A stretch of 64,000 nucleotides of DNA from Octopus vulgaris (lineage: Eukaryota). Each line of letters begins with the position of its first letter. The first letter of the stretch is position 1. Positions 7,506-57,487 of this stretch are shown here, in pieces. The position numbers and the translations under genes were made by a program. The stretch is from positions 41,540,001 to 41,604,000 of the forward strand of contig OX597814.1 in NCBI GenBank assembly GCA_951406725.2. Direction: 5' to 3'. The notes below the pieces were generated by a model. It was not told where the DNA came from and searched no databases. It worked only from the letters and a program-made list of their open reading frames with translations.

Positions 7506-8461
7506 CATGCATATGTTGTCATTCGTACTCAGTGTGAGATCACTGGTTTAATCCTTGTCGCTCTGTGAGTGTGTAGAATTTTAATTACTTGACTGCCTGT
7601 GTAAGTGTGTGATATAACAAACTTGGTTACAGTGAACAAGTAATTCATTTCGCATAATATGAAGCAGATACACTGTAGTAATAAAATGAATGTTTTTTTA
7701 ATGAATAAATATATCAATAAAAACCTCTCATTAAGAGAATATAGCTCGTAAGACACCTAACCATTATATCATATTAAGTGTATTTTATTAAAAAAATCAG
7801 AGTAAAATTTCTCTTCTTAAACACGCTCAACAGACTGAAAGTTCCAACACACAGAAAATTTCATCATGTACATATGTTATTTGTCAATTTCATGTAAACA
7901 CTTGTAAACGTCATGCCTCCACATTTTACATTTGAAATAGAAGCATCACTATGTTTGCCGTCGACGGAGATATATCTAGGAGTGATTCCATTGCGAATAG
8001 TTGACAATCAGAGTAGAAATCTCTGACACTAACACTCGATAATTAAGCAAATCCACTACGATGTTGTGTAAAGAAAATATGTCATTATTAGTATTAACAC
8101 CATACACACTTAATTATATAGACAGACGGTACGAATAGTTCAGATGAAGTCCTATATAATAATATAAGCAACATAGATTATTTCATCACAGGTAGCCTCT
8201 ATTCCTTTAAAAACATTTGTTATTTGCCGCAGAACACGCTGAAAGCAGGTAACTGTATCAGTTTAAATTTAGAAATGAGTCTCGAAAATCCATGAATTTA
8301 AAGAGAAAATATCTCTGTGATTATTAATTTCTTCAGCAGTACATGAAACAGTAGGTAGGAAATATAAAAAAAATCTCGTTCACTAAAGAAGATCAAACTT
8401 TAAAACAATCGGGTATTTTGAATATTGTCAAGGAAGTCACAACTTACCGTTGCTTATACTG

Positions 8462-8512
<51 letters not shown>

Positions 8513-8644
8513 GGGGGATATGCTCCCAAGGAATATCTGTGATGATACAATCAACGATTTCCACCGACTTTCCAGTTATATTTTACATAATACTTTACAT
8601 ACACGCATACATAAAATTATACAGATGTTTTTTATGAAAAGTAT

Positions 8645-8690
<46 letters not shown>

Positions 8691-8695
<5 letters not shown>

Positions 8696-10163
8696 TAACG
8701 ATAAACTGCCCAGGGCGCTAAAAGAAGGCACCATATGCCCTATCCACAAAGGAGGGAGTAGAGCAGAGGCCAAAAACTACAGACCAGTCTCCCTGACGTC
8801 ACACATAAGTAAGGTCATGGAACGAATCATCAGAAAAAAACTGATCACGTTCCTCGAAGAAACTAACCGTCTCACTGACACGCAGCATGGCTTTCGCCCA
8901 GGAAGAAGCTGCCTTACGCAGCTGTTACAACACTACGACTGGGTACTGAAACAACTACTGGATCGCTCACAGGTGGATGTGGTATATCTCGACTTTGCGA
9001 AGGCCTTTGACAAAGTCGACCACGGAGTGATATGTCACAAATTACTCAGACTCGGCATAACAGGAAAAGTAGGTGAGTGGATACATGACTTCCTGAAGGA
9101 CAGAAGCCAGATGGTTGCAGCCAATGGAGCCCCCTCGGGAAAGACACCAATAGCAAGCGGGGTGCCACAGGGCACAGTCTTGGGACCCTTGCTGTTTTTG
9201 GTGGCGCTCTCTGACATGCCCCTGGTTGCACAAACAACATCCCTCACTAGCTATGCTGATGACACAAAGGTAGCACAGGCAATCAAAAACCCAGCTGATG
9301 CTGACCTTTTGCAACAAGATCTGGATGCCATATACAAATGGGCTGAAGACAACAACATGCAATTTAATGCTGGTAAATTTCAAGCCTTACAATATCAAGC
9401 TGTAAACACATATACATTACAACACAACTATACTGGTTCAGGAGGGATCGAAATCCCAGTATCGAAATCAATACGGGACCTGGGGATAGACATGAGTGAC
9501 GATGCATCTTTTTCTTCACACATCGCGAAGGTGGCGACAATGTGCAGACGACTCACTGGCTGGATCCTGAGGACATTCCGGACAAGAGACTGCGAGACCA
9601 TGTTGACACTATGGAGGACATTTGTCCTAAGCCGCCTGGACTACTGCTCCCAACTGTGGTCACCGCATAGTGTCAAACTAACCACAGAGCTTGAGACAAT
9701 CCAAAGACATTTCACCAAGAGGATTTCCACCATGAAAGAAAAGAACTATTGGGAGAGGCTTAGGGAACTCAATTTGTACTCCTTGGAACGAAGACGAGAG
9801 AGATATGCAGTGATATACATATGGAAAATCCTGGAGGGACTAGCACCAAATTTTGGAATTGAGAGCTCTTCCAATCCCCGTATAGGACGTCACTGTGTGG
9901 TGCCAAAGGTCCCGTCTTCCACATCCAGGGTAAGGAGCAGATACTGTAATAGCCTGGGGTTCAGGGGCCCTCAGCTGTTCAACAAACTGCCAAGAAAACT
10001 AAGAGATCTACATGATGCGGATGTGTACATTTTCAAAAAACATCTAGACAAGCTGCTTTCCGGCATCCCAGATGAACCCACTGCAAGGTACGAAGGTAAC
10101 CTGAGGGCAGCAGCTACAAACTCTCTCTTAGATCAGTGGCCAGCCACGGCAAACTGGACTTAG
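8691..10163 (+). CDS. Reverse transcriptase (LINE ORF2 RT domain + C-terminus, no endonuclease; 490 aa from ATG 8691)
   Basis: NYRPVSLTS, QHGFRPGRSC, YLDFAKAFDKVDH, SGVPQGTVLGPLLF, YADDTK, RDLG, SLERRR. The N-terminal part of the 8418 ORF is microsatellite-derived. Confidence 0.88.
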
Positions 10164-10236
10164 AGAGGGTAGCAACAAGGGCGGTGCCCCACCATGGGCT
10201 CACCCGGATGGCTCAAACAAGTAAAAGAGTAAAAGA

Positions 10237-10238
<2 letters not shown>
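8691..10238 (+). mobile_element. Young 5'-truncated CR1/L2-group LINE inserted in (TA)n
   Basis: Uninterrupted RT ORF, short 3' UTR and (GTAAAAGA)-type tail repeat; (TA)n on both sides. Confidence 0.93.
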
Positions 10239-10272
<34 letters not shown>

Positions 10273-10290
10273 TCTTTTACTCTTTTACTT

Positions 10291-10944
<654 letters not shown>

Positions 10945-15974: not shown

Positions 15975-17866
<1,892 letters not shown>

Positions 17867-19086: not shown

Positions 19087-19225
19087 TCAATAAATGGTGG
19101 GGTTGTGTTGACCGCACGTGGAGAAATGATAAGTAAGGAAAAAATTTTTTAAAAATGCAGAATGCTCAAATGAAAGAAAATTTTAATAAAATGAGAAAAT
19201 GATAAAATATATAAATATATATATT

Positions 19226-19266
19226 TATTCAACCGGTTTTCGTCAATGTATGACTTGTCAAGAATA
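19226..19266 (-). ncRNA. Minimal hammerhead motif, U3-A8 core variant (left arm)
   Basis: Reverse complement of the 21826-21866 motif, identical. Confidence 0.6.
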
Positions 19267-19900
19267 TTTATGTTTTAAGAATTTTTTTTAAAAATTAGAA
19301 AGGGGAAAAAAAGAAAATTGCAATGTTTTTTGTAAAAGAATAATGATAAAAATGTACAAAAATTAAAAAATAAGTTCTCCGATACATTGTGAGTTCGTTG
19401 TGTATCTTGAGTTTTATGGTTGTTTACCAAAAAATTACCTTGAGGTGTTAAGATCCAAAGGGATTAAGAGCATGTGATGTGTTGTGTTGTTAAATTCAGC
19501 ATGTTGCAGGACAGGAAGTAGTAGTAATTGTGGTCCTGGTTCTTCAGTTCCTGTGTTGTGAGTAAGGGAGACAACTCTTTTGAGTTCTTCAATAAAACCC
19601 AAATTATAAAACTATCATTTTAGCTTCATTTGCATTATCTTTTTTATATAATTGCTTGTTAACTTAACTTTCCGATTTTAACACTTTATTTATATTATTT
19701 TCTAATAATATAAAACTGCATAGACAATTGCATTTCAAATTGTCATATCATTTATAATAAAAATGATAGTAGTAACAACAACAATAGTGAAAATGATATT
19801 TAAAGAATATAAGTTTTAGCTTGAAGTGGTGAATGCATGGTATCTTTATATATTTGTGTTAGTCCATCCATGAAGAGTGAGGTAGAGAAAGGAAGTTTGA

Positions 19901-21000
19901 TCAACGAGGAGTTTGCATATTAAGTTGTGTTTGGAATTTTTCAATAAAGAGATTCTCCTTGTTAATTCTCTCCTGTGTGGTGATCCCGTCTTTACATTGG
20001 TAGAAGGGGAATATATAGAATTTGGGGTTTAAGTCTTTAGCACATGAGTCTAAGTGGTCACTCAGTGGAATTTGTCGGTATTCCGGGAGATTTATTTGTT
20101 CTTTATGCACCGTTACTCGTTTACGTAACGGGAGACTCGTTTGTCCCACATAATTATGTTGGCAACCAGCGCATGTGAGAACGTAGATAAGGTTCTCGGA
20201 GGAACAGGAGAAGTTAGTCTTGATTTTAAACTTCGTACCTTGTTTGAAGGTAAATTCAGAGCCTTCAAGTAGAAAGGGGCAGGTACCACAGTTTGAGCGT
20301 GCACATTTTTTTACTGTTGGGGGTGGATGTGGTGTGTGAAGTTTGGCATTTGTCAAGAGTTTTTTTAAAGATTTGTGTTGCCTTTTGCATTTGAGGATTT
20401 TGTGTGTATTTATAATGTTTTTCATTTTTGGGTCTGTTGACAGTAGACTGAGGTTTTGTATGATTGTGGTGTATGCTTCGATATTTTTGGGGTTGTGGGT
20501 GGAAATGTATGGAAGTATTTTGAGGTTGTGTGTGGTGTTAGGTTGGGTGGTTATCAGTGTAGTGTCGTCTAGTTCTTTGGCGCGTTTTATTCCATACTCT
20601 ATAAGGGTGGAGGGATATTGACGTTGTAATAGTGTTTTTTTGAGGTCTTGAAGGCGTATTTCTCGTGTTTTTGGATCCGAGACAATGGTGCATACCCTTT
20701 TAGCTAAATTGAAAGGGATATTTGTCTTGGTGTGTTTTGGGTGGCATGAACTAAAGAGGAGGTATTGTTGTGAGTCTGTAGGTTTGTGGTAGATGTCTGT
20801 TATGATTTGGTTCTTAGGTGTTTTTATAATTAGGAGATCAAGGAATGGGAGATGATGTTTGCTAAATTCCATAGTGAATTGGATGTTGGGATGTATGTTG
20901 TTTAGTAATGGTTTTGAATTCCAGGAGTTTTTCATAAGGTTCTTTCCATATGATGAAACAATCATCTAAATACCTTTTCCAGTTTTCCATTAGGTAGGTG
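19901..21000 (-). pseudogene. Penelope RT C-terminal half + GIY-YIG endonuclease (one frameshift near 20910)
   Basis: WKRYLDDCFIIW in an alternate frame at ~20950-20983; HPNIQFTME, LPFLDLLI, YHKPT, CxxxxCxxC linker, NLIYVLTCAGCQHNYVGQT...R...H; stop at 19901. Confidence 0.92.
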
Positions 21001-21825
21001 TGAAAAAAGTGTCTAAGTGAGTCTAAGTGAGTGACCACTTAGACTCATGTGCTAAAGACTTAAACCCCAAATTCTATATATTCCCCTTCTACCAATGTAA
21101 AGACGGGATCACCACACAGGAGAGAATTAACAAGGAGAATCTCTTTATTGAAAAATTCCAAACACAACTTAATATGCAAACTCCTCGTTGATCAAACTTC
21201 CTTTCTCTACCTCACTCTTCATGGATGGACTAACACAAATATATAAAGATACCATGCATTCACCACTTCAAGCTAAAACTTATATTCTTTAAATATCATT
21301 TTCACTATTGTTGTTGTTACTACTATCATTTTTATTATAAATGATATGACAATTTGAAATGCAATTGTCTATGCAGTTTTATATTATTAGAAAATAATAT
21401 AAATAAAGTGTTAAAATCGGAAAGTTAAGTTAACAAGCAATTATATAAAAAGATAATGCAAATGAAGCTAAAATGATAGTTTTATAATTTGGGTTTTATT
21501 GAAGAACTCAAAAGAGTTGTCTCCCCTTACTCACAACACAGGAACTGAAGAACCAGGACCACAATTACTACTACTTCCTGTCCTGCAACATGCTGAATTT
21601 AACAACACAACACATCACATGCTCTTAATCCCTTTGGATCTTAACACCTCAAGGTAATTTTTTGGTAAACAACCATAAAACTCAAGATACACAACGAACT
21701 CACAATGTATCGGAGAACTTATTTTTTAATTTTTGTACATTTTTATCATTATTCTTTTACAAAAAACATTGCAATTTTCTTTTTTTCCCCTTTCTAATTT
21801 TAAAAAAAAATTCTTAAAACATAAA

Positions 21826-21866
21826 TATTCTTGACAAGTCATACATTGACGAAAACCGGTTGAATA
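21826..21866 (+). ncRNA. Minimal hammerhead motif, U3-A8 core variant (right arm)
   Basis: tattc-TTGACAA-gtca/tacat/tgac-GAAA-accggt-t-gaata: stem I 5 bp, stem II 4 bp, palindromic stem III. Confidence 0.6.
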
Positions 21867-21961
21867 AATATATATATTTATATATTTTATCATTTTCTCA
21901 TTTTATTAAAATTTTCTTTCATTTGAGCATTCTGCATTTAAAAAAAAATTTTTTCCTTACT

Positions 21962-21996
<35 letters not shown>

Positions 21997-24569: not shown

Positions 24570-25345
24570 CCACCGTCTAACGGTGAATGGATACAATGTC
24601 TTAAATACATATATCCAGTACTATATGTTACGAATACATCGTTCTGGATACACACAGTGCAATAGAATCTGAGTGTACAAAGGAGCTAAAGCAAGATTCG
24701 AACGCATTCTAAGAGATGACGTAACGGTATATGCCCCCTGTGCCGCAGCAAGTTCTGGAATAGATTGGAGAGGGACTCCCCCTCCCCAAAAAAACATTAA
24801 AAACAGTACTTTTTAGGATAACAAGAAGGTTCACAGTGTAATGTTTGTTGACGCTACACCGAAGAACGAATTAGGTAAGGCATTTAAGAAAATCTTGCGC
24901 ACAACTGATCTTAAGTTCAAATTTATAGAAAAGAAAGTTAAGGCTATCAAATCTGTATTAATAATATCATACCCATTTGATAGAATCACGTGTCTGAATA
25001 ATTGTGCAGTATGTTGTACAAACCCACATGTGAACTGCAAAACGCAGAGCACTGTATATCAGGTTAAGTGCCAAGAAGGAGCTTGCGTGACTATCACAGA
25101 GTCATACATTGATGAGACTTCTAGGAGTATCAATGATAGGTTCAAAGAATACTTGTACAACTACACTGCAAAAGAAAAGCAGAAAAAACTCCATCTTCTA
25201 AAAGTATGCTGTAGACTGCCACAAGTGCTCCTTGAGGAAACTTAAGTTAAACATCTTATCTACACATTCCACTGATGCAATACTGAGGCTGTCTGTGTAA
25301 AAGAATACAAACCCACTCTCAACAGTAAATCCAAATTAGGTAACA
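24570..25345 (+). pseudogene. Penelope-like element relic of a different lineage (RT thumb/linker + GIY-YIG)
   Basis: RSGYT...MFVDATPKNELGK...CLNNCAVCC...CKTQSTVYQVKC...YIDETSRSINDRFKEY. Confidence 0.75.
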
Positions 25346-25947: not shown

Positions 25948-26909
<962 letters not shown>

Positions 26910-43159: not shown

Positions 43160-43169
<10 letters not shown>

Positions 43170-43340
43170 ATTTAGGAATGGTCATTTTGCCAGTTTAGCC
43201 AATAAAAACACACGCACTATATATATAGTGCGTGTGTTTTTATTGGCTAAACTGGCAAAATGACCATTCCTAAATACAACAATATCTGTTTCAACACACG
43301 ACTTCACATAAAAAAATCTTGCACAACAAATATTTAAACG
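43160..43340. mobile_element. Short insertion in (TA)n containing a perfect 126-bp palindrome (43160-43285) plus a 55-bp extension of one arm
   Basis: atattgttgtatttaggaatggtc...cacgcac-tatatatata-gtgcgtg...cctaaatacaacaatat. Confidence 0.8.
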
Positions 43341-49090: not shown

Positions 49091-50220
49091 TATATGTGTG
49101 TGTGCGTGTGTGTGTGTGTGTGTTCGTTAAAAATCATGCCAGTTATATATATATATATATATATATATATGGTGCTCTCAGTACTGGACATACTTTTCAG
49201 GCTATATAAACTGATCATTCTGTATTATATGTATAAAGAGCTATTCAAGATTTTCCTATTAGCTCTGTTCCAAAATGTAGACAAATACACTTTCGGTATG
49301 AGAAACAGACTTTTACAAATGCATAGGAAGTTTTAAATATTTAGGCAACCAGCCGCATCTCCAGAGCATGTTTAGTTCCATTAAAGAAGACTTCCGCACT
49401 GCAATCTCTGCTACTCTGCAATCCGTTAACTATTCGAAGAGTATGTGTGCTGATATTAGTTAATTTTCTCAGTGATTAGTTTTGCAGCAGCCAATGTCAT
49501 GCTGCTCGTGATAAACTTAGTAAGGCATCTGTCTCATAATTTAATTAGATATATTAGAACAAAAGTATCCGAACGTATACATCTTTAGACCATAAACAAC
49601 AGACGGTTATCTCTAATTAGAAATACACGTTAATACTGAAAATGATGCGCATATGTGTCAACTGAGATTAACTTCTGCTGGTCCATTCGATTGTCTTTTT
49701 CACAATATGCACTAATCGCAATTTTCAAGAACTCTCTATGCTTTATTAGTGTAGACTTTCATATTGAAGAAATGAGTTCTATTACACATTATCTCTTATT
49801 GGAATTGCATTGCATTTGATGAGACTTGAAAATCGTGGATTCTTTTAAGACACATGAAATTGCTTGCATCCCACTTCTGACAAGTTCATCGACTGATTTT
49901 TCGCATGTGGAAGTTAAAGTAACGGATCACGTCGCATGATATTAACTTGCTGTAAAGTTTTGTGAACTGAACTACTTACATATTGTTTAACTTTACATAA
50001 TCTGAATTGCAAAAAAGAAATAAAGAACGTTTGATATATTTCTAATATAAATGGTAGCATACCATACGTCCATGTTATACAGTTGTCAATGTATTCAATC
50101 TATTTCTAGAAAATACGTACATGCATATGCATGTATGGGTATATATTATATATCTGTATATATAATATATGTGTATACATATGAATACAATTTATATATA
50201 TATATACATACATATGTATA

Positions 50221-50266
<46 letters not shown>

Positions 50267-50350
50267 GGTCCCGGGTTGAGTCGGGGTTAACCACAGTAAA
50301 TAAAGGTACTCAATACATAGCAGAGTAAATTAATTTATTTTATAGAAGGG

Positions 50351-50399
50351 GCTTCTACAGGACTAGAACTGTTTCATTCAAATGAAATCATCAGGAAGC
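50351..50399 (-). ncRNA. Type I hammerhead ribozyme motif (opposite arm)
   Basis: Minus strand gcttc-CTGATGA-tttcatttgaat-GAAACag-ttctagtc-ctGTA-gaagc. Confidence 0.72.
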
Positions 50400-50446
50400 T
50401 TCCTGATGATTTCATTTGAATGAAACAGCTCTGGTCCTGTAGAAGC
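50398..50446 (+). ncRNA. Type I hammerhead ribozyme motif
   Basis: gcttc-CTGATGA(50403-09)-tttcatttgaat-GAAAC(50422-26)ag-ctctggtc-ctGTA(50439-41)-gaagc: stem I 5 bp, stem III 4 bp. Confidence 0.72.
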
Positions 50447-50466
50447 CCCTTCTATAAAATAAATAA

Positions 50467-50499
<33 letters not shown>

Positions 50500-50501
<2 letters not shown>

Positions 50502-52065
50502 GTATGTAAATACGTGTGACAATTACTCGGTAGCCATGATAAAATTTCGATCTTCGGATACCGAGTCAGGAACCCACGCCAGCATATCGTCAGTCATCGG
50601 GCCATCGAAAACACTGGATGGGCACACCGAGTGGAGTGACAGAGAAGTAAAAATACCACTATTAAGTCTTAAGGTGACGATCAGGGGCGCAAGATCTATG
50701 GACAGGATGAGATGCAAAAGGTATTCTACCAGCATTTCGCACGGTTGTTAGGGGAGAATGGTCCGCTTGATCACGGGAAAGCCTTCAAGGTCTTTCTACC
50801 GCGGAGGTAAAATAGTTGTTGGCCGTGTGCGCCGGAGAAACGTCACCGGTGCTAGATGGTCTGTCCTCTGAGTTTTATCGTAGCTTGCCTGACTTGTTCT
50901 GCAAGCGTCTATACAAATTGGCAACAGAATGAGAGAATTTCCAGTGCTATGAGCCGGGGGGTGGTGACGCTGCTCCAGAAGGACTCGAGCAAGGGGGATA
51001 GTGTTAGTAACTACAGGCCCATAACTCTACTTAATGCAGAGTAAAAGATTTTGTCCAAGACGGCTGTCGTGGAGAAACTTGTCGGGAGAGACAGACATGT
51101 GCAATACCGGGTAGGTCGATCCAGGACAATCTTCACCTCATCTGCTACACCTTAGAAGGGTTGTGTAAATTAGCCGGCAAATGTGGGGCAATGGTCCATT
51201 TAGACAAAAGTAAAGCATTTGATAGGGTTGACCATCAGTACCTGTCGGCGGTCCTCGAAGCGGGTGTGCTGGGCTCGAACTTCCGCAGGTGGATGTCCGC
51301 TATGTACAGCGGTATCAATTCCATAGTCCAGATAAACGGTTACCTGATGGAGCCGTTTTCGATCAAGCGCTCAGTTTGTCATGGGTGTCCCTTGTCTCTG
51401 CTTGTGTATGTTTTGGCTCTTGAGCCATTGCTGCGGAAGTTGGAGAGGTTGGGAGGTAACACTGATGAAATCGGAGGCAGAAGCCTGTTTCTGCTTAAGC
51501 GGACGACGTCGTGTTCATCGTGTCCAATGAAGCACAGCTACCTCGTGCAGGAAATGCTATCAGAGGATCCGAGGCGGTGACAGGAGCAAAAGTTGACGAA
51601 AACAAATCGATCGGCTTGCGCCTCGGCACCTTGAGGAGCAAGTCGATATCGGCAGCGTCGTGTGGCTCTGGATTGATGGTCCTGTTAAGTTGCTTGGAGT
51701 TTGCTTTGGACCGGACTCCCAGACGTAGAAGAATTGGTGCGAGGTGGGAAAACAAGGTAATATTCCGGACTTGGTCCGGAAAACCTCTGTCCTTCAAAGG
51801 AAGGGCGGAGGTGGTGCAGGTGTTCATTGCATCTATAATCACCTACCACCTGGATAAGCAAGTTGGAACGACTCATTTTACGCTTTTTGCAGGAGGGAGG
51901 AAAGCCACTTGTGAGGCGCTCCGTTTGCTGCCAGGAAGCGTTAAAGGGTGGGTTAGGGATGCCTTTGGTAATGATGCGCAAACACGCGTTGATGTTGAGA
52001 CATCTCTGGTACCATCTGGAAGGTGATAAGGTGTGGTGCCCGCTGGTGGAGGGATTCTTCCTTCT
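50500..52065 (+). pseudogene. L1/Tx1-clade LINE RT relic
   Basis: SPVLDGLSSEFY, NYRPITLLNAE*KIL, LDKSKAFDRVDHQYL, RSVCHGCPLSLLVYVLALEPL, A*ADDV, GGLGMP. Confidence 0.88.
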
Positions 52066-56689: not shown

Positions 56690-57487
56690 AATAAATACAC
56701 TGGACCTGGAGGGATTGCAATCCCAGAGGCACAATCAGTGCGAGACCTGGGTATTTACATGAGTAATGATGCAACCTTTCATGTGCATGTTAGTAAATTG
56801 GCAATGAAATGTAGGCGGCTGACCGGATGGATACTGAAAGCTTTCAGAACATGATACCAGGAGACCATGATGGTCCTCTGGTGGACACTTGTCCTAATCC
56901 ACTTTGACTATTGCTCTCAGCTATTGTCACCAACCAGTGTCAAATTAATCACAGAACTTGAAGCAATCCAACGAAGCTACACAAAGAAGATAGCTTCTAT
57001 GCAGCATGTAAGATATTGGGAAAGACTCAAGAGATTAAGACAATATTTCTTAGGGCGTAGGCGAGAAAGATATGCCATAATATACATCTGGAAGATCCTG
57101 GAAGGAAGTGTCCCAAACTTTGGCATCGAGAGTTACACATATACTAGAACTGGGCGTCACGGCATAGTGCCAAAAACTCCAAATTTGCCATCAAGATGTT
57201 GGACAAGATACTGCAATAGTCAGGGCTTCAGAGGTCCACAGCTCTTGAATATCCTTCCGAAGGACCTGAGAGACCTGCACGGGGTGGATACGGATGTCTT
57301 TAAAATAAAGCTGAACCTCTTTCAGTCAGTTGTCCCAGATGAGGGCAGCTCCATCAAACTCTCTCATGCACCAAATGTCAATTGCTGAATAACATTCGTG
57401 AAGTAAAATTATGTAGCAACACCGAATGACAGTGCACCAGCATGGCCACAGCTCGTGAGCTGAAACTAGATGTAAATGAGAAAAAGA
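56690..57487 (+). pseudogene. 3' fragment of a CR1/L2-group LINE
   Basis: VRDLGIYMSND...DYCSQLLSP...RRRERYAIIYIWKILEG...GFRGPQL; 3' tail gacagtgcaccagcatggccacagctcgtgagctgaaac. Confidence 0.88.

Follow-up and report, generated by a model that had tools for sequence, protein, structure and literature searches.

The octopus DNA analyzed in the present study, a stretch of 64,000 nucleotides referred to hereafter as the window, contains a small palindrome within (TA)n in which each strand encodes a hammerhead ribozyme motif, and the question raised by this locus is whether such an arrangement represents an element in its own right or a by-product of a known retrotransposon. A first-pass annotation of the window suggested the former, namely, a distinct inverted-dimer class mobilized by the reverse transcriptase of a Penelope-like element (PLE). 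The insert is real and ordinary in kind. We consider it likely that two-arm (TA)n palindromes of this type are the shortest insertion class of a Hydra-clade PLE, the mirror half of which is rebuilt at each insertion.

The description of the first insert (copy A, 50265-50464) as a (TA)n insertion of approximately 200 bp with 66-bp arms and 2 mismatches was borne out, and its center falls between 50398 and 50399 (Table 1). The targeting of (TA)n was also upheld because copy A lies between two (TA)n tracts, both copies in the window (2/2) sit in such tracts, where a target-site duplication is unreadable, and loose ends in (TA)n were detected in public sequencing runs. The end of the short arm mirrors position 50333, at which termini joined to (TA)n recur in three of the four runs that were mapped. 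By folding, the tail is predicted to contain a hairpin of 5 bp (50307-50327) and, at its end, a GC-rich stem that closes an AC-rich loop. No ORF was found within copy A or the second insert (copy B), and neither showed direct tandem repeats of hammerhead units. A MITE or fold-back DNA transposon was rejected because the two outer ends lack symmetric terminal inverted repeats; the symmetry is central and the outer ends differ by 68 nt.

Table 1. Positions of the features of copies A and B, numbered from the first nucleotide of the window.
Feature	Position	Strand	Description
(TA)n target tract, left of copy A	50140..50263		
Copy A long arm	50265..50398	-	Probable 5'-truncated PLE 3' end with hammerhead, AT-rich stretch, and tail; sense is the minus strand
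Copy A tail, ~68 nt	50265..50332	-	Long arm only; depth below that of the shared part in 4/4 runs
Type I hammerhead motif, Hydra-clade layout	50351..50399	-	Predicted cleavage after 50356; layout checked against the accessible part of PMC8557442 (File S2)
AGCT palindromic 4-mer	50397..50400		Inversion center of copy A, 5' edge of helix I
Type I hammerhead motif	50398..50446	+	Predicted cleavage after 50441; two changes in loop III
Copy A short arm	50399..50464	+	Inverted copy of this PLE 3' end without the tail; 66 bp, 2 mismatches
(TA)n target tract, right of copy A	50459..50497		
Inverted duplicate of copy B left flank, 20 nt	10272..10291		Mirrors 10218-10237; centered on (TA)17
Copy B short arm	10292..10316	-	~25 nt, incomplete hammerhead
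Copy B long arm	10320..10451	+	Core at 10322, GUA at 10358-10360, helix I broken; 3' end as in copy A
(TA)n tract, 3' end of copy B	10450..10659		

Regarding the ribozyme motif, each strand of copy A has a CUGAUGA/GAAAC/GUA core, forms helices I and III of 5 and 4 bp, respectively, and fits the type I core (C3-A9, G12-A14, A15.1-U16.1, an NUH site, and helices I and III), which confirms the reported presence of the motif on both strands. A strict hammerhead descriptor matched two sites in the window, both in copy A, versus none in 100 resampled windows. The further statement that each motif is a complete type I hammerhead was correct for the core and helices I and III and failed for a stable helix II and for a match to Rfam. 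The G10.1-C11.1 pair and a stable helix II are absent, the stem being 3 bp with U.U (copy A) or U.C (copy B) at its base. The Rfam hammerhead models, the use of which had been proposed as a check, returned no hammerhead in the window at the gathering score (only a partial match at 12.3 bits, E 2.3), nor in eight metagenome loci that will be described below. Matches to miRNA families in Rfam were discarded as a generic hairpin resemblance far below the threshold.

This weak and unusual helix II appears to be a trait of the Hydra clade because the same departure is present in the Hydra-clade motifs accessible in PMC8557442. According to File S2 of Craig et al. (2021; PMC8557442), this clade targets (TA)n, and 100-170 nt separate its hammerhead from the 3' end. 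The motif has an extra U after CUGAnGA; helix II is 3-4 bp long and capped by a 4-nt loop, GAA is preceded by U or C, and helix III is ACAG/CUGU in several elements (PMC8557442). Compared with the accessible part of that data set, the insert shares the (TA)n target, the extra U, the short helix II and its 4-nt loop, the U or C before GAA, a 4-bp ACAG/CUGU helix III, and the distance to the 3' end, and the 3' end of Hydra-2_Amil has a tail hairpin motif like that in the tail of copy A. It is unlike the clade, as far as the same source extends, in its lack of an ORF, its loop III of 8 nt versus 1-3 nt, its A-U rich helix II, and its tail of ~68 nt. On the basis of these sequence features, the insert is probably a stub of a hammerhead-bearing, Hydra-clade PLE, an assignment made by eye from RNA motif likeness rather than from an ORF. 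The only octopus Hydra element in the accessible part of PMC8557442, Hydra-1_Obim, was rejected as the parent because it has a different hammerhead. Two short family motifs were absent from the accessible part of the supplement of Craig et al. (2021), and no autonomous parent element was found. The literature available to us did not describe the octopus family or junctions in helix I, and subscription papers, Repbase/Dfam, and bioRxiv supplements may contain them. Apparently, this is a Hydra-type PLE family of an octopus-like genome that has so far gone undescribed.

The layout of copy A is best read as a 5'-truncated tailed copy joined head to head with a tail-less copy, a structure already known for PLEs. 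In PLE insertions, the 5' end commonly bears a 5'-truncated copy in inverted orientation, and one of the ends has a tail of 30-40 bp; Penelope-13_HM is a known case of such an inverted truncated copy (PMC8557442, accessible parts). Palindromic head-to-head junctions have been ascribed to self-priming (Arkhipova et al., 2013; PMC3846280), and, in the work of Frangieh et al. (2024), the tail corresponds to the distance between two internal start sites of reverse transcription and the target is AT-rich (PMC11167929). According to the accessible parts of these two papers, the PLE unit with inverted pLTRs and the insert both have head-to-head arms, a palindromic junction, one tailed arm, an AT-rich target, and a hammerhead ~60-130 nt from the ends. 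The insert is unlike the described units in being only 200 bp long and without a part of the ORF, and its junction lies inside helix I of the hammerhead, which is unmentioned for the units in the portions of PMC3846280 and PMC11167929 that were accessible. The PLE origin suggested in the first-pass annotation is, thus, supported by both the inverted-copy-plus-tail plan and the Hydra-type hammerhead layout. Against the reading of the insert as a PLE stub, the tail of ~68 nt exceeds the usual 30-40 nt.

Opposite-strand hammerhead pairs are not new either. PLE remnants in Schistosoma contain such pairs 100-700 bp apart (Cervera and De la Pena, 2014; PMC4209133), which, in the accessible text, similarly derive from truncated PLEs and are expected to have low activity; the spacing in copy A is 8 bp, and the Schistosoma ribozymes are minimal hammerheads, whereas the present motif, with a full helix III and no G10.1-C11.1 pair, is not of the minimal type. 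Non-LTR retrozymes resemble the insert in being small, non-coding, and kin to PLE pLTRs with a type I hammerhead, and also occur as dispersed monomers; however, they are characterized by direct tandem repeats and circular RNA, whereas the insert is inverted and has no tandem unit (Cervera and De la Pena, 2020; PMC7229834; bioRxiv 10.64898/2026.07.22.740005, both in part). The proposal of a distinct inverted-dimer class was not sustained because its layout is that of the known PLE inverted pLTR plus tail, and opposite-strand hammerhead pairs have already been reported, as described in the accessible parts of the papers cited above.

Copy B (10292-10451) is 90.9% identical to copy A over 164 nt and lies in the opposite orientation. 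It had been presented as a second double hammerhead, and the shared long-arm 3' end, the position of the center within 1 nt, and the opposite orientation were all confirmed, whereas the doubling of the ribozyme was not. The short arm of ~25 nt ends before helix III, and a 1-nt gap breaks helix I in the long arm, in which 2 bp are contiguous. Between the left flank and the short arm lies an inverted duplicate of the flank, a feature absent from the first-pass annotation; a 5-nt AAACA microhomology with one substitution links this duplicate to the short arm. Since this junction holds DNA copied from its own flank, copy B is not the faithful copy of a master; the junction could also be a later rearrangement.

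Public sequencing runs place these two inserts in a larger family. Among the runs listed, 23/24 contain part of the element and one contains half or more of its words. Four runs were mapped on the 134-nt long arm at 80% likeness using contigs only, and, as the mapping query ended at 50398, the results cover the arm up to the center and list no joints. The numbers of mapped contigs (302, 623, 4233, and 77) indicate many variant copies of the family in two organisms, with the summed depth over the arm not being equivalent to the copy number. Among the loose ends listed (24 of 70 rows), those in (TA)n recurred at 50329, 50333, or 50336 in all four runs, which places a second (TA)n-joined end of the family ~64-71 nt inside the first, and the summed depth of the shared part exceeded that of the tail by 3.3-, 1.9-, 4.3-, and 5.9-fold. 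The recurrent loose ends and depth ratio together point to a family with two 3' termini ~68 nt apart.

The likeness between arms provides insights into how the mirror arises. In all four runs, 99.5-100% of the depth at position 50350 is A, whereas copy A has a private G that is mirrored by a complementary C at 50447. The arms of copy A are 97% alike to each other and 82-85% alike to the long arm of copy B, and the arms of copy B have three substitutions in common that are lacking in copy A and occupy tolerant hammerhead positions (N7 and loop II). An ADAR origin was considered for the private changes in copy A, which are all from A:T to G:C, and was rejected because the strands are mixed and the changes too few. 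Since the arms are closer to their own partner than to other copies, the mirror was probably rebuilt at insertion. Apart from such rebuilding, gene conversion acting between the two arms would also account for the shared private variants.

These data also bear on the possibility that a palindromic master gives rise to a hairpin transcript, the full length of which is copied by the reverse transcriptase of a PLE, which would make the insert a distinct non-autonomous inverted-dimer element. The short-arm end is fixed and the center is nearly so, the shared part is deeper than the tail, and PLE ends are known to have given rise to non-autonomous hammerhead elements (PMC7229834; bioRxiv 10.64898/2026.07.22.740005, accessible parts), all of which are compatible with a master. 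A palindromic master would be expected to transmit differences specific to one side. However, the arms are closer within than between copies, three alternative short-arm ends and other centers were observed, copy B joins a 25-nt short arm to its own flank, and the retrozymes described are direct tandem repeats. We regard this explanation as unlikely. The fold-back point had been attributed to either the mechanism or a master copy, and the private variants shared by arms favor the mechanism and disfavor the master.

Palindromes may also form after insertion or during assembly, and the window contains others centered on (TA)n: 25948-26909 (481-bp arms centered on 26428, 96%), 43160-43285 (63-bp arms centered on 43222, perfect), and 10218-10291 (20 bp) in the left flank of copy B. 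These are either fold-back duplications of flanking DNA at TA tracts or assembly artifacts. The extension of this explanation to copy A, in which self-complementary DNA folds back as in its neighbors, is very improbable because the center of copy A is outside (TA)n, the short-arm end is a family-wide terminus in independent runs, 2 mismatches separate the arms, copy B has the same center, and other organisms show this layout as well.

The rebuilding of the mirror half of a Hydra-clade PLE may proceed as follows. Judging from PLE biochemistry, a GIY-YIG endonuclease would nick both strands within (TA)n, and reverse transcription would start at two internal sites in the RNA, the spacing of which gives the tail. 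cDNA synthesis may then terminate prematurely, shortly beyond the hammerhead. The head-to-head junction would arise when the resulting cDNA end or ends pair, or fold back, at the AGCT of helix I, which is self-complementary; the junction of copy B may have followed the AGCT route with the later loss of 1 nt or may reflect a 4-nt AGGA/TCCT overlap. The inversion center would then be a microhomology hot spot rather than an obligatory site, and the hammerhead a passenger, with a read-through transcript zipping antisense-first into a 66-bp hairpin. A fixed site or a master copy would equally explain why 2/2 window copies have one center in common and why 12 distinct metagenome loci share a center octamer. 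Among these 12 loci, a locus's own partner arm was the closest in eight, in line with rebuilding, and the arm of another locus was closer in four, which speaks against it.

In order to place this layout in a wider context, metagenomes were scanned with a pattern of two opposite hammerhead cores and a gap fixed at 8 nt, which yielded 86 loci. In 70 of these, the likeness between arms exceeded 70% over 60 nt, and alignable arms were centered in helix I in 47 of 60 hand-picked distinct insertions that represent many unrelated families, while none of the 34 matches to a related variable-gap pattern in a prokaryotic control had arms. The variable-gap motif had no matches in viral contigs, and the exact 22-nt family motif had none in metagenome contigs. 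Automatic grouping gave 55 groups, 42 of which had alignable arms of 43-148 nt, apart from one arm of 404 nt that is a probable assembly artifact; two of the 42 were marginal. Centers were perfect in 21 of the 42, and a conserved tail on one arm was present in many pairs. Helix I paired one base past the center in 7 of 11 perfect center types and two bases past in none of seven (~0.01, as calculated by hand with p 0.25 for families that are not independent). This overrun of one base and never two suggests that junctions use a native palindromic dinucleotide.

Several individual loci merit description. Head-to-head doublets with Hydra-clade-like hammerheads and a center in helix I are present in L029 (480-660) and L076 (940-1130). 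As far as the accessible motifs allow, the hammerhead of L029 is close to those of Penelope-1_NV/1A_NV, and that of L076 to Hydra-1_aMil in helix III. The short arm of L029 stops just ahead of a tail hairpin like that of copy A, and the resemblance between the two tails (scores of 30.5 and 32.5 versus shuffle maxima of 32 and 35) is not significant alone. In L016, L046, L067, and L049, the two arms derive from different or markedly diverged hammerhead families, which suggests that the cDNAs of two templates were joined. Tandem arrays of inverted hammerhead units and nested partial duplications around the center occur among L053 (950-1330, period of 126 nt), L066, and L078. L048 and L058 are mismatch-free palindromes of more than 1 kb per arm, the same loci in other assemblies (L052 and L001) have arms of ~100 nt, and the long forms are likely assembler artifacts at hairpin centers.

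A stronger proposal, which is compatible with the PLE-stub explanation, is that the edge of helix I is a preferred junction or template end. The center lies within 1 nt in both window copies (2/2, 91% alike), and the 47/60 proportion of metagenome arms centered there against 0/34 in the prokaryotic control is in its favor, as is an AGCT-type center octamer common to 12 distinct loci of one superfamily. Moreover, L016 and L067 join two different families at this site, and the intron of D. virilis Penelope ends at the 5' end of helix I (PMC4209133, accessible text). In the runs, five single contigs leave for unrelated sequence, without inversion, at 50380, 50383, 50391, 50392, and 50393, a cluster of 5' ends near this edge. 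On the other hand, a near-palindrome of helix II at ~50379/80 is the fold-back point of four contigs from a single run. The head-to-head layout is widespread, but an enrichment at helix I is not demonstrated because the scan itself fixed the 8-nt gap. The flanks of the loci contain 10 further hammerhead elements, which escape this bias (14 motif matches minus three inside the selected loci, with one pair counted once). Of these, none had an opposite core at helix I and two had partner cores 52 and 134 nt away; several run more than 60 nt upstream, and three had less than 30 nt of upstream room. The strictly fixed center envisaged at first was not supported in view of the contigs folding at ~50379/80, the five uninverted ends, and the gaps of 52 and 134 nt, and a preference for the helix I edge, while possible, is doubtful.

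The window contains another PLE with which this proposal may be compared. The relic at ~19087-21963 on the minus strand has a 5'-truncated ORF with a C-terminal GIY-YIG domain at 19901-20965 (Pfam E 5e-4, below the cut-off), a CX4CX2C linker and CCHH, and an inverted copy of ~930 bp; one of its ends bears a tail of ~40 nt. It belongs to a family other than that of copies A and B, shows the same inverted-copy-plus-tail plan, and is presumably Neptune-like, judging from its motifs. A hammerhead-like motif in its 3' region, at 19261, shows the U3-A8 variant of the core, and helix III of this motif is palindromic. The junction of the relic lies ~800 nt from this motif, which argues against the edge of helix I as a general site. 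The protein of the window PLE had no match in the 86 metagenome loci (tblastn, E 1e-3).

A further suggestion was that the transcript of the insert alternates between two states, a long hairpin and the active hammerhead fold. Both folds may be drawn, and the isolated minimal motif is predicted to form helices I and III. However, the full palindrome folds at approximately -116 kcal/mol versus -45 for the hammerhead fold, placing the hairpin ahead by ~70 kcal/mol and the predicted probability of the hammerhead fold at ~1e-49, and, since read-through from either side transcribes the antisense arm first, no switch is expected. A lone arm is also predicted to lose the fold to an 8-bp local hairpin after ~10 further bases, with its probability falling from 7e-3 to 2e-4 in a model that leaves tertiary contacts outside; in the same model, the minimal forms of the comparable motifs in L029 and L076 have probabilities of 2e-3 and 4e-3. 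This 8-bp hairpin covers the cleavage site and the 3' strand of helix I in both copies (50344-50360 on the minus strand and 10357-10377 on the plus strand). A regulated switch is, therefore, scarcely credible, and the claim was not supported. Based on these models, the hairpin would hold the ribozyme in an inactive state, and such copies would fail to self-cleave. Dimerization via helix III is familiar from metazoan hammerheads, and helix III with its palindromic loop is predicted to dimerize at -13.4 kcal/mol versus -1.7 for the monomer hairpin.

To our knowledge, hammerheads are absent from Naiads. They are also dispensable for PLE insertion in vitro, where the hammerhead cleaves only with protein (Frangieh et al., 2024; PMC11167929, accessible parts). 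The stubs described in the present study provide a clean, small example of how a PLE insertion is built and make it possible to examine whether junctions cluster at helix I beyond the expectation from microhomology. A broader idea, which we regard as unlikely, is that, across animals, the shortest products of hammerhead-bearing PLEs end at the 5' edge of helix I, where the fold of the ribozyme or a linked start site might mark the template boundary; the resulting doublets would be self-silenced on both strands and tolerated in transcribed DNA, seeding genomes with thousands of perfect hairpins of 45-130 bp. If true, such hairpins would be ready substrates for ADAR and Dicer in the octopus, and the PLE hammerhead would gain a role independent of cleavage.

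The remaining repeats of the window include LINE reverse-transcriptase relics at 8355-10237, 16148-17642, 51035-52026, and 56855-57388, the first of which has a short tandem tail immediately followed by the (TA)n in which copy B lies. A SINE at 10662-10860 is presumably of the octopus type and, together with the density of (TA)n, is the basis for describing the genome as octopus-like. The frame at 24817-25245 on the plus strand had no Pfam match and shows, by eye, the likeness of a decayed PLE GIY-YIG domain.
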